A DNA stretch of 64,000 nucleotides from Lobosporangium transversale (Eukaryota): NCBI RefSeq assembly GCF_002105155.1, contig NW_019028980.1, positions 744,001 through 808,000 on the forward strand. The letters are read 5' to 3'. The position numbers and the translations under genes are program-made. Every line of letters begins with the position of its first letter. The stretch's first letter is position 1. The notes below the pieces were generated by a model. The model saw nothing but the letters and a program-made list of their open reading frames with translations. It had not been told where the DNA came from and ran no database searches. Of this stretch, positions 59,395-61,903 are shown one piece after another.

Positions 59395-59502
59395 GAATCT
59401 CGGCAACACTATTTAACCGGGGGCGACTTTGGATTTCATCTCTATAAAAAAAATTGAAAAGTCGCCCCCATGGTCCATGCGCATGCTCTGACTCTCACTG
59501 TT
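59395..59502. repeat. Conserved non-coding hairpin repeat, copy 1 (in the intron after the CRN header)
   Basis: GAATCTCGGCAACACTATTTAAC...; 12-bp stem GGGGGCGACTTT (59419-59430) / AAAGTCGCCCCC (59458-59469). Confidence 0.95.
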
Positions 59503-59718
59503 GTCTGAGAACACAGTTTTCATTTTTATTTTTATTTTTATTTGACCTGTTTACATTGATGCATTTGTTAGTTTTTCTGATTGAATCTGTTTCGCGTTTC
59601 GCACACATGCTCTGACTCTCCATTAGCTGGCGTTCATATCTCATTGACAGCAATATATTCTTTGATCTGATCAAAATGCTAACATTTCTGCCATTGCCGC
59701 GCTCTCTTATCTTTCTAG

Positions 59719-61719
59719 AGTCATCGGAACAGATTCTCAAGAGAAAAATGGATGAAGGTAATAATTTGTTTTTTGCTGTTTAGATAGATCGACTTGGTGA
59801 CTGACTATGTTATGGTACTAACCAACTGTGTATGTGTATGATGATCATAATTAGATCCACGGTATATTTCACCTTCAAAGAAGATGCGCATTGAGGAAGG
59901 GTGGAGAGAATACAGGGCTTCTGATGGTAAAATGGTCACGTTACCACCCTCTTGGATCGCAATGCTGGAGAATCCTGAAGACCCGCCCGATGCACGTAAT
60001 AAGTTTAATCATCTGAAAAGCGATAATCAGCTTGGTGATCAAGTTCACATTCCATCCTTGGGCCTCACACCGAAAGAATTTGAGGAATATAATTCGGGAT
60101 TTATAATTACGGATCAGATGCTAGAATTGTGGAAGGAGATTAGTGCTGAACAAAGGTTTTCATTTCGGCGAGTCCTTTCTGGTCCTATGGGGGTTGGCAA
60201 GTCATATCTATCCTATTTCCTTGCTGCAAAAGGATATGCGGAAGGGTGGCTTACCCTTTATATACCAGATGCCGCGATATTAAATGAAAGTTCGGATACA
60301 AAATCGGCAAAGGCACTGTTAAGGCGCTTCTTCGCTTTCAACAGGGATATCTTGACGGCATCTGATCTGGAAAGTCTCCTCGACTTTTCTGAAGTTATAG
60401 ATTGCTCAATTGTGGCTGCTCGCGCAGTATTCGACCTATTCAAACAGAAGGAGCGCAAAACACTGTTCATTATCGACGAACATGGAGAGTTATTCCGAAA
60501 AGAGCCGTATGTGCCGGATAAATACCCGTTCCTGAAGCATCTAATGAACCTTAATCTATGGCAGTCTCATTACAAAGGATCTAGAGTGATATTTACAGGA
60601 ACAGCCCATGCCAAATATGAATTGCAGATTATGGAAGACAGTGCTCGAGCTATCTTATTGTACTTTGTTGGCCCACTATCCGAGACAGTGTTTTCAAAAT
60701 GGTTGGAGGTCCACCTGAACCAACCCGATATTGTCCAGGATGTAATGAGGATTACAAACCGTGTGCCGCGAGAGTTTATGCGCCTCATTCGATCAATTAA
60801 GGAAAGACCACTCACAAGAGATAGCATTGATGGGTATGTAGCTCAGAGAACAAGCGAGCTTCGCCCTGTAGTTCAGAATTACTACAAAGCTCTCAGCGAG
60901 ATATCGAAGGAGGAGTTCGCTAAAAGCCTTGCAACAGTCTTCCTTGGCAACAACTCGGAGAGTGGTGATTTTGAATGGGATTTCCGTGACCTAGGGCTTA
61001 TCTATCGTCTCAACAAGAACCGCGGAGCCATAAACTATGTCTTGTGCCCCCCAGTGCAGAAAGCACTCTTTAAGGCGTTTACAAGTATGCCTCATCATGA
61101 GCATATCCTGAGGGGAGTTGTTCTTGGAGAGATGAGTGGAGATGATTTCGAGTTGGCACTGCTGGTCCGGTTTTTGACTTTAACCAAGCCAATCGTTCTC
61201 GAAGCAACAAACCTTGTCGGCGAGGATCCAACGCAGATTATAATGGACTTTAAGGATCATGGGACAATCCATCAAAACATGACTTCTCTTGGACGTGGCT
61301 ATGGACATGTACTGAGCCATTGTCATTCGAGTTATCCTCGCTTTGATTTCATACTCGACACAATGTTTATCCAGGTGTCCATAAGTGATTTCTGCGACCA
61401 CGAGCAGAAACAAACTAAGCAGATCCAGAACGCTTTTGATAAGAGAGATTCCAACGGCAAAAATCAGATTGAAGGATATTTGGACGAAGTATTTGGAGGT
61501 AATCATTCCGCCATAATTGACGATGGGCATTTTGTTGTCAAAAAGGATGGAGAGCCAGTAACTGGATTTAAAATAGTTTACATGCGTGGTTCCCCTGGTA
61601 CACCAAACCACACTGGATTAATCAGAAAGTACAAAGATCTTCTTCATGTCAGCTTCGACGAGCTCAAAGAGAAACTTTTTAGAAATATCCATCTCAAAAA
61701 TAAAGAACCGTGTTATTAA
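59719..61719 (+). CDS. CRN C-terminal cassette 1: 39-nt mini-exon plus P-loop NTPase and REase-like nuclease exon
   Basis: Mini-exon 59719-59757 (ESSEQILKRKMDE). Main exon from 59855 is in frame with ORF 59884-61719. Walker A LSGPMGVGKS, Walker B LFIIDEH, nuclease-like YPRFDFILDTMFIQVS. Confidence 0.85.
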
Positions 61720-61793
61720 ATTTCTATGACAAGCCTTTTTATAGGATTAAGAACTATATTATTACTGTATACTGTGACGAAAATTCTAAGTTG

Positions 61794-61903
61794 GAATCTC
61801 GGCAACACTATTTAACTGGGGGCGACTTTGGATTTCATCTCTATAAAAGAATTTGAAAAGTCGCCCCTCCATGCTCCGTGCACATCCTCAGACTCCCACT
61901 GTT
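61794..61903. repeat. Conserved non-coding hairpin repeat, copy 2 (75 bp after the cassette 1 stop, upstream of cassette 2)
   Basis: Three mismatches to copy 1 over the first 74 nt, none inside the shared 11-bp stem GGGGCGACTTT / AAAGTCGCCCC (61819-61829 / 61857-61867). Confidence 0.95.

Follow-up and report, generated by a model that had tools for sequence, protein, structure and literature searches.

A hairpin-bearing repeat in the first intron of a Lobosporangium transversale Crinkler locus as a putative box for tail exchange

Why should one short non-coding block occur twice at a single Crinkler (CRN) locus, each time before a C-terminal cassette, when the two cassettes have little else in common? 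The locus lies at the end of a 64,000-nt stretch of the Lobosporangium transversale genome (NW_019028980.1, positions 744,001 to 808,000), referred to here as the window and numbered from its first letter. A preliminary description had taken the block for a functional cis-element and offered three roles for it: a crossover site, an RNA structure that selects the splice acceptor, or the end of a unit mobilised by the NTPase and nuclease of the cassette. The reading that we favour, with modest confidence, is that the repeat serves as a homology box in the intron, through which recombination swaps tails, and that the second cassette is a spare.

Anatomy of the locus and of the repeat

The best protein matches to the locus are L. 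transversale models, one of which (P0126) represents this very locus. The order of elements is Crinkler header, intron with repeat copy 1, cassette 1, spacer, repeat copy 2 and headerless cassette 2 (Table 1). The header domain, PF20147, scores 67.5 bits at a cut-off of 24.6; the first ATG is at 58863, and the annotated model begins at 58938. The header ends in the junction motif HVFVKPPQR, of the HVLxxP type, at a phase-1 donor. In this assembly its frame is broken near the 3' end and the ORF stops at 59237. P0126 bridges the break as a 40-nt intron (59213-59252), a splice joint absent from those listed for sequencing run X5, which we took as an RNA run, a guess backed by its GT..AG joints. 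Because the header is frameshifted, the locus may be a relic.

Table 1. Elements of the Crinkler locus, in window coordinates
Feature	Position	Strand	Description and basis
Crinkler header exon, coding part	58863..59290	+	Pfam PF20147 (E 2e-18); ORF list; P0126
Intron 1, with repeat copy 1	59291..59718	+	428 nt, GT..AG, phase 1; X5 joint, depth 1837 (possibly from paralogues)
Repeat copy 1	59390..59502	.	Palindrome at 5' edge, 12-bp stem, A-rich loop, 33-nt 3' tail; self-BLASTN, folding
Cassette 1 micro-exon	59719..59757	+	Phase 1/1, basic; X5 joints, translation, P0126/P0128
Cassette 1 main exon	59855..61719	+	ORF; AAA+/STAND-like P-loop NTPase, then likely restriction-endonuclease-like domain (structure models)
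Spacer	61691..61793	.	103 bp, inverted relative to paralogues; right breakpoint at centre of the repeat's opening palindrome
Repeat copy 2	61794..61903	.	Direct orientation; self-BLASTN
Cassette 2 micro-exon	62149..62190	+	42 nt, phase 1/1; same peptide as header-bearing P0183
Cassette 2 main exon	62290..64000	+	Headerless NTPase cassette, open to window end; ORF; weak P-loop Pfam matches

All junctions are in phase 1, so that a splice from the header donor to either cassette would keep the frame. Cassette 2, which no header precedes, has its acceptor at 62148 and splice sites in phase, and its frame stays open for 570 codons. The X5 joints of intron 1 and of the second intron of cassette 1 (GT..AG, depth 2310) belong to a multi-copy family, so both depths may come from paralogues. 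The acceptors follow the repeat by 216 nt at copy 1 and by 245 nt at copy 2. Between the cassette 1 stop and the second copy there are only 74 bp, and no immunity gene was seen in them.

The two cassette proteins are 35.7% identical over 574 columns, and their best DNA match reaches 71% over 99 nt. The introns after the repeat (215 and 244 nt compared) yielded no alignment above shuffles (p 0.30), and the repeat is the sole block common to the two introns. The earlier statement that neighbouring intron and coding DNA show no comparable identity is thereby borne out.

Structure models were used to assign the domains of cassette 1. One predicted structure (pLDDT 83.9) shows an AAA+/STAND-like P-loop NTPase fold, with Z scores up to 19.9 to DAP3/mS29-type and AAA+ ATPases (mS29: Z 19.9, rmsd 3.4, 261 residues aligned; AAA+/STAND proteins come next). 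The C-terminal model (pLDDT 91.7) likely represents a restriction-endonuclease-like fold. Its top structural matches are mostly restriction nucleases at low scores, the best being R.BspD6I (Z 5.2, rmsd 4.1, 117 aligned), and Foldseek gave no restriction nuclease match for this domain at E 0.001. D498 and Q507-x-S509 are conserved in the nuclease-like domain.

Self-BLASTN of the window aligned 59395-59502 with 61794-61903 at 90.0% identity over 110 columns (E 1.8e-35). Copy 2 follows copy 1 in direct orientation after 2399 bp, and no third copy was found in the 64 kb; patterns drawn from the repeat matched the window twice each and not once in 100 shuffles. The copies differ by nine substitutions and one 2-nt indel. 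Three differences fall in the first 74 nt, at 59418 just outside the stem and at 59450 and 59453 in the loop, and six in the last 33 nt. Both the level of identity and the position of the three 5' differences agree with the preliminary description.

The stem comprises 12 bp in copy 1 (59419-59430/59458-59469) and 11 Watson-Crick pairs plus one G-U in copy 2 (61819-61829/61857-61867), and it encloses an A-rich loop of 27 nt. No difference breaks the pairing of the arms, the change at the stem end of copy 2 resulting in the G-U pair. The GC-rich stem of 11-12 bp is thus intact, as had been claimed; however, this carries little weight as evidence, because only two copies are compared and ten events would miss the 22 stem positions out of 108 with a chance of 0.09. 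No compensatory change was found between the two copies. The hairpin folds with z scores of -4.0 and -2.4 (copies 1 and 2) on the plus strand and of -4.0 and -3.5 on the minus strand. A possible 8-bp stem that crosses the main one (59390-59397/59435-59442; p 0.014 by shuffling, 0.09 with real flanks) gives no more than a hint of a pseudoknot. A scan of 58000-64000 with the covariance models of Rfam 15, at E up to 5, left the repeat without a match.

The limits of 59395 and 61794 hold for the BLASTN alignment but not for the conserved unit, which starts about 5 nt further 5', at 59390, and forms a block of about 113 bp. The start was moved because an inversion breakpoint lies at the 61794 edge: the 103 bp before it, as assembled here, run in the opposite direction to those of paralogues. 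Copy 1 opens at its 5' edge with a 12-bp imperfect palindrome (59390-59401).

Upstream of the header, a broken relic of an origin-binding helicase gene (56995-58144, minus strand; Herpes_ori_bp, E 8.6e-10) is oriented divergently from it. For such helicase genes in Glomeromycotina a possible viral origin is mentioned in the available text of one study (PMC10234402). DNA at 58400-58586 is also multi-copy in the contigs. Two upstream motifs at 56128 and 58437 were rejected as related, their likeness being merely a 13-nt match.

Paralogues, sequencing contigs and relatives

The preliminary description had also held that the repeat is under stronger constraint than coding DNA (90% versus 36% identity). 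This argument is unsound, since paralogues of the cassettes in the same species are 93-98% identical, and the comparison therefore gives no proof of selection on the repeat. The tail of cassette 1 is 98% identical to that of P0128, and cassette 2 is 93% identical to P0183 over 568 aa. In P0183 a header is followed by the identical micro-exon that cassette 2 of the window has and by a body 93% identical to that of cassette 2, and the related cassette protein P0130 occurs in identical form at at least four accessions on four contigs. Judged by these identities, the cassettes are old types in young copies, and the repeat is as young as the recent exchanges of the family. What needs explanation is the single intron block common across cassette types.

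A survey of mosaics covered 36 L. transversale models, 15 of them with a recognisable header end and 14 with sequence behind it. In these 14 models, the header ends HVFVKPPQR and HIIVKLPPP each stand before three micro-exon types, and the cassette 1 micro-exon stands behind three different header ends. For two of the three micro-exons behind HVFVKPPQR, those in P0121 and P0122, the tail that follows has no alignment to cassette 1. For instance, P0126 and P0128 have tails that are 98% identical with headers matching at 51 of 86 positions, whereas P0183 and P0141 match at 83 of 89 header positions and are 45% identical in the tail. Such shared header ends with differing tails, and the reverse, map the crossovers between donor and acceptor. 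The mosaics are gene models, and the presence of the repeat in their introns is an assumption.

The box is not the only point of exchange, since P0127 and P0128 switch inside the main exon and P0141 and P0180 switch behind a common micro-exon. The switch inside the main exon favours general homologous recombination over a site-specific enzyme. Models with consecutive accessions (ORZ18369-18379) form ordinary tandem clusters. RNA loose ends behind 59290 read into a micro-exon that matches P0121, whose tail is unrelated. In P0121 a window-like header and an RHSP-type NTPase are annotated together with a Helitron fragment, which echoes the CRN-helitron link reported for Phytophthora.

Contigs were available from four runs on two samples, the DNA runs X1, X6 and X7 from one and X5 from the other. 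Summed contig depth, which does not equal copy number, was 599 in X1 and 11 in X6 before copy 1 (59370), 11554, 65 and 38 in X1, X6 and X7 within copy 1 (59419), and 2288, 23 and 19 after it (59698). In X1 the bin that holds copy 2 (61766-61952) had a depth of 4724 and the bin after it one of 258. The repeat is less deep than the header in each of X1, X6 and X7. These depths suggest that the repeat is multi-copy.

Record 4 of X1 (1004 nt, depth 128) reads from the header donor through the repeat into a diverged cassette-2-like type, with just about 46 nt between the donor and 61825. It is a diverged paralogue with the order header, repeat, cassette 2, and not a deletion product; neither a deleted allele of the locus nor an excised circle was seen in the contigs. 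A joint of opposite strands at 61690/61793 occurs in X1 (1397), X6 and X7. Read in the inverted sense, the 103-bp spacer yields the protein end of the paralogues and restores the 12-bp palindrome of the copy 1 type, so that one breakpoint of the inversion coincides with the palindrome centre. The listing for X1 includes 12 DNA joints, 7 of which have one end within the repeat or at its edge, and all four opposite-strand joints listed have an end in 61793-61810, three of them possibly due to one inversion. Joints were also listed at 59398>59454 (depth 599) and 59298>59712 (depth 112). The contigs suggest that in some paralogues the repeat is partly or wholly missing or diverged. One X6 contig, at 59446, has the 3' half of the repeat beside 255 unrelated letters.

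Outside the species, three related loci were recovered among 54 metagenome candidates, and the repeat was found in none of the three. Two of these relatives have a readable header intron, of about 110 nt (L002) and 90 nt (L003), both without the block, which may be confined to the Lobosporangium lineage. Viral contigs gave no match to the stem pattern and no cassette alignment (0 of 33 candidates), and the repeat had no match in plasmids and phages by BLASTN at E 0.1. In prokaryotic genomes, 34 contigs match both arms with a gap of 20-50 nt. In most of them each arm forms a small hairpin of its own; they hold no CRN-like gene, and BLASTN at E 0.01 aligned none of them with the repeat. We take them to be bacterial REP doublets that share the 11-bp arm. 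As relatives of the repeat they were rejected as a coincidence, the match being confined to the arms without wider similarity.

Two observations concern the relatives themselves. In L002, the segment 1-773 holds a CRN header with its intron, a micro-exon and the start of an exon in inverted orientation within the cassette, flanked on both sides by a perfect inverted repeat of 64 bp made of coding DNA; this segment is either a real inversion or an assembly chimera. In L003, a strong C-run/G-run hairpin (364-401) lies about 340 nt upstream of the CRN start.

Tail exchange and its alternatives

Tail swapping starts from the phase-1 position of the intron, the in-phase splice sites, the mosaics of the family and the sole block common to both introns. 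From these we infer that header and C-terminal cassette are exchanged by crossover within the box of about 113 bp in the first intron. Such a crossover would keep the frame, because the junction is spliced out. At this locus, a cassette 1 unit bearing the repeat would have been inserted at the box by a single crossover, or an unequal crossover would have occurred in a tandem array, in either case with the product header, box, cassette 1, box, cassette 2. The reverse crossover between the copies would remove 2399 bp and make cassette 2 the tail of the header. Breaks in the box may be favoured by its hairpin and by the palindrome with which it opens. Ordinary homologous recombination or gene conversion would suffice, and a dedicated recombinase would not be needed. 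Among the three roles proposed for a cis-element, the crossover site is thus the best supported, in that the mosaics place crossovers in the intron and the P0183 cassette stands behind a header; that the site is the repeat itself is what we infer.

If correct, a defined intronic block before interchangeable tails, together with a stored spare tail, would be a concrete DNA substrate for CRN shuffling, and a eukaryote, here a soil fungus, would store and deploy toxin-like tails as bacteria do. If not, the block would be a lineage-specific intron relic. A further version of tail swapping, programmed effector switching, appears improbable to us. It would require a dedicated break-prone site at which silent NTPase-nuclease cassettes move in and out behind Crinkler headers that are expressed, with the cut made at the palindrome or a cruciform, possibly by the cassettes' own nuclease; if true, it would be a eukaryotic counterpart of bacterial orphan-toxin or integron arrays.

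The alternative that survives best, though we hold it to be unlikely, is a passive origin: an old small insertion in the intron of an ancestral Lobosporangium CRN gene, spread by tandem duplication or gene conversion, with a hairpin that has no job and a cassette 2 that is a duplicate bereft of its header. The absence of the repeat from two relatives, its apparent partial or complete absence in some paralogues, stem conservation that is not significant (p 0.09), the ordinary tandem clusters (ORZ18369-18379) and the broken header at this locus all agree with such a history. However, the repeat is 90% identical within introns that otherwise do not align and is deeper in the contigs than both flanks, so that repeated exchange or selection would be needed, and cassette 2 keeps its 570-codon open frame and in-phase splice sites.

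Two further alternatives are very improbable. The first is a choice made at the RNA level, in which base pairing between the left arm of copy 1 and the right arm of copy 2 would loop out cassette 1 and let the header donor meet the acceptor of cassette 2. In energy, such cross-pairing is possible (-21.2 kcal/mol, with the local stem at -22.9 kcal/mol), the two acceptors share one phase, the change at the stem end of copy 2 leaves a G-U pair, and the crossing stem of 8 bp described above would allow a pseudoknot. However, the local stem is as stable and forms without a long-range search, and the opposite strand folds equally well, which counts against a role in RNA. In X5 the header is joined to cassette 1 (depth 1837), and no joint to 62149 is among those listed, the weakest of which has a depth of 72.9; two further joints outside the listing rank lower. 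The cassette-2-like RNA contig of this run (1623 nt; 43 differences and a net 3-nt gap relative to the window) contains the micro-exon, as a computed depth of 27.33 against an observed 27.3 indicates, and it fits the header-bearing paralogue P0183, which differs from the window's cassette 2 by 34 residues, one gap and at least 35 base changes. Since X5 is a single run from the other sample and contigs drop minor forms, these data weaken a splice of header to cassette 2 and do not imply that cassette 2 is silent; the low X5 cover of 61953-62139 is likewise no evidence of silence. The proposal that the repeat selects the acceptor as an RNA structure thus found no support, as no such joint was listed in the one RNA run.

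The second is a self-moving unit, with the repeat as the end or cut site for the cassette's own NTPase and restriction-like nuclease or for another site-specific enzyme. In its favour are the NTPase fold and the likely nuclease fold with D498 and Q507-x-S509 conserved, the identical P0130 copies at at least four accessions on four contigs, and the inversion breakpoint at the centre of the 12-bp palindrome; NTPase and REase pairs are linked to transposons in the available text of PMC5289972. However, no target-site duplication or terminal inverted repeat was found at the unit ends, one and the same box precedes cassettes that are 36% identical, relatives with the same enzyme lack the box, and the nearest recombinase-like gene lies about 49 kb away. 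The mobilised unit of the preliminary description accordingly lacks both terminal features that would speak for it.

Least probable of all is a dispersed MITE-like element present by coincidence: the hairpin is multi-copy and the X6 contig with 255 unrelated letters (59446) is among the loose ends listed, with another 135 outside the listing, but the stem is internal, with 29 nt (5') and 33 nt (3') of conserved flank, in place of terminal inverted repeats there is an imperfect outer pairing in copy 1 only (59398-59408/59499-59510), inspection of sequence and alignment showed no target-site duplication at either copy, both copies precede a CRN micro-exon acceptor (by 216 and 245 nt), and repeat depth stays below header depth in the three DNA runs. 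Helitrons end 3' in a short-loop hairpin about 11 nt before CTRR; a Helitron end was rejected here, the loop being 27 nt long and CTRR absent at that distance on either strand.

Comparison with known systems and other features of the window

In Phytophthora CRNs, recombination between header and C-terminus at the HVLVVVP motif is established according to the available text of PMC3726527 and PMC5289972, which names only this coding motif as the breakpoint and suggests helitrons as the agent. The latter source also cites helitron-like tandem arrays for CRNs. The two cases are alike in the gene family, in near-identical headers with unrelated tails and the reverse, and in a junction at the same motif. 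In contrast to the coding breakpoint of Phytophthora, the junction here is a phase-1 intron that follows the motif and contains the hairpin block, outside coding sequence; further downstream, a second copy of the block precedes a headerless cassette. The parts available of two studies (PMC6131194, PMC10234402) treat fungal CRNs without such an element. Literature searches, with most subscription papers outside their coverage, found no published description of this intronic block. Shuffling of CRN headers and tails as such has long been inferred from sequence comparison.

A bacterial parallel is provided by the orphan Rhs cassettes of Salmonella, where the main gene and the orphan tail share a 522-bp block of 95% identity (PMC3967940, available text). 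As in Rhs/CDI systems, a headerless C-terminal module lies downstream, a homology block is shared (90% over 110 columns), and recombination would bring the orphan into use by removing the main tail. However, the present locus is eukaryotic and spliced, the block is intronic and about 110 bp long, no cognate immunity gene was seen in the 74 bp after cassette 1, and the order that deploys cassette 2 behind a header was seen in paralogues only, not as a rearranged allele. The likeness to Rhs/CDI is one of analogy, not of membership. In the effector-immunity arrays of the Vibrio cholerae T6SS, displacement is sequential and a new front module pushes the old one downstream, as far as the accessible text describes it (PMC5361080). 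The old effector disappears from those arrays while immunity genes stay behind, whereas here the whole tail is retained.

Repeated cis-elements before each alternative module are also known from the docking-site/selector splicing of Dscam1, from integron attC sites and from the R64 shufflon. At the present locus no alternative isoform was listed, no adjacent recombinase was found and the two copies showed no covariation. No joint to cassette 2 of the Dscam type was among those listed from the contigs of the one RNA run. No dedicated recombinase gene was found at 56000-64000, where the window ends inside cassette 2.

Several other features of the window were noted. An intron-containing gene at 8388-10825 has matches to NDC10_II, presumably the tyrosine-recombinase-like domain of Crypton elements. 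A 4389-bp inverted duplication of 99.95% identity (26569-30957 and 35487-39874) flanks convergent ORFs for a RecQ-like helicase (30961-33081, plus strand) and a DUF6589 protein (33131-35854, minus strand). Its arms hold a 181-bp tandem repeat, and it resembles a transposon whose inverted arms are very long, unless it stems from the assembly. At 40131-40330 and 42556-42751 there is a 200-bp inverted copy (94%) of a coding exon of the neighbouring putative glycoside-hydrolase-like gene, and a 548-bp region at 25236-25783 is self-complementary at 68%.
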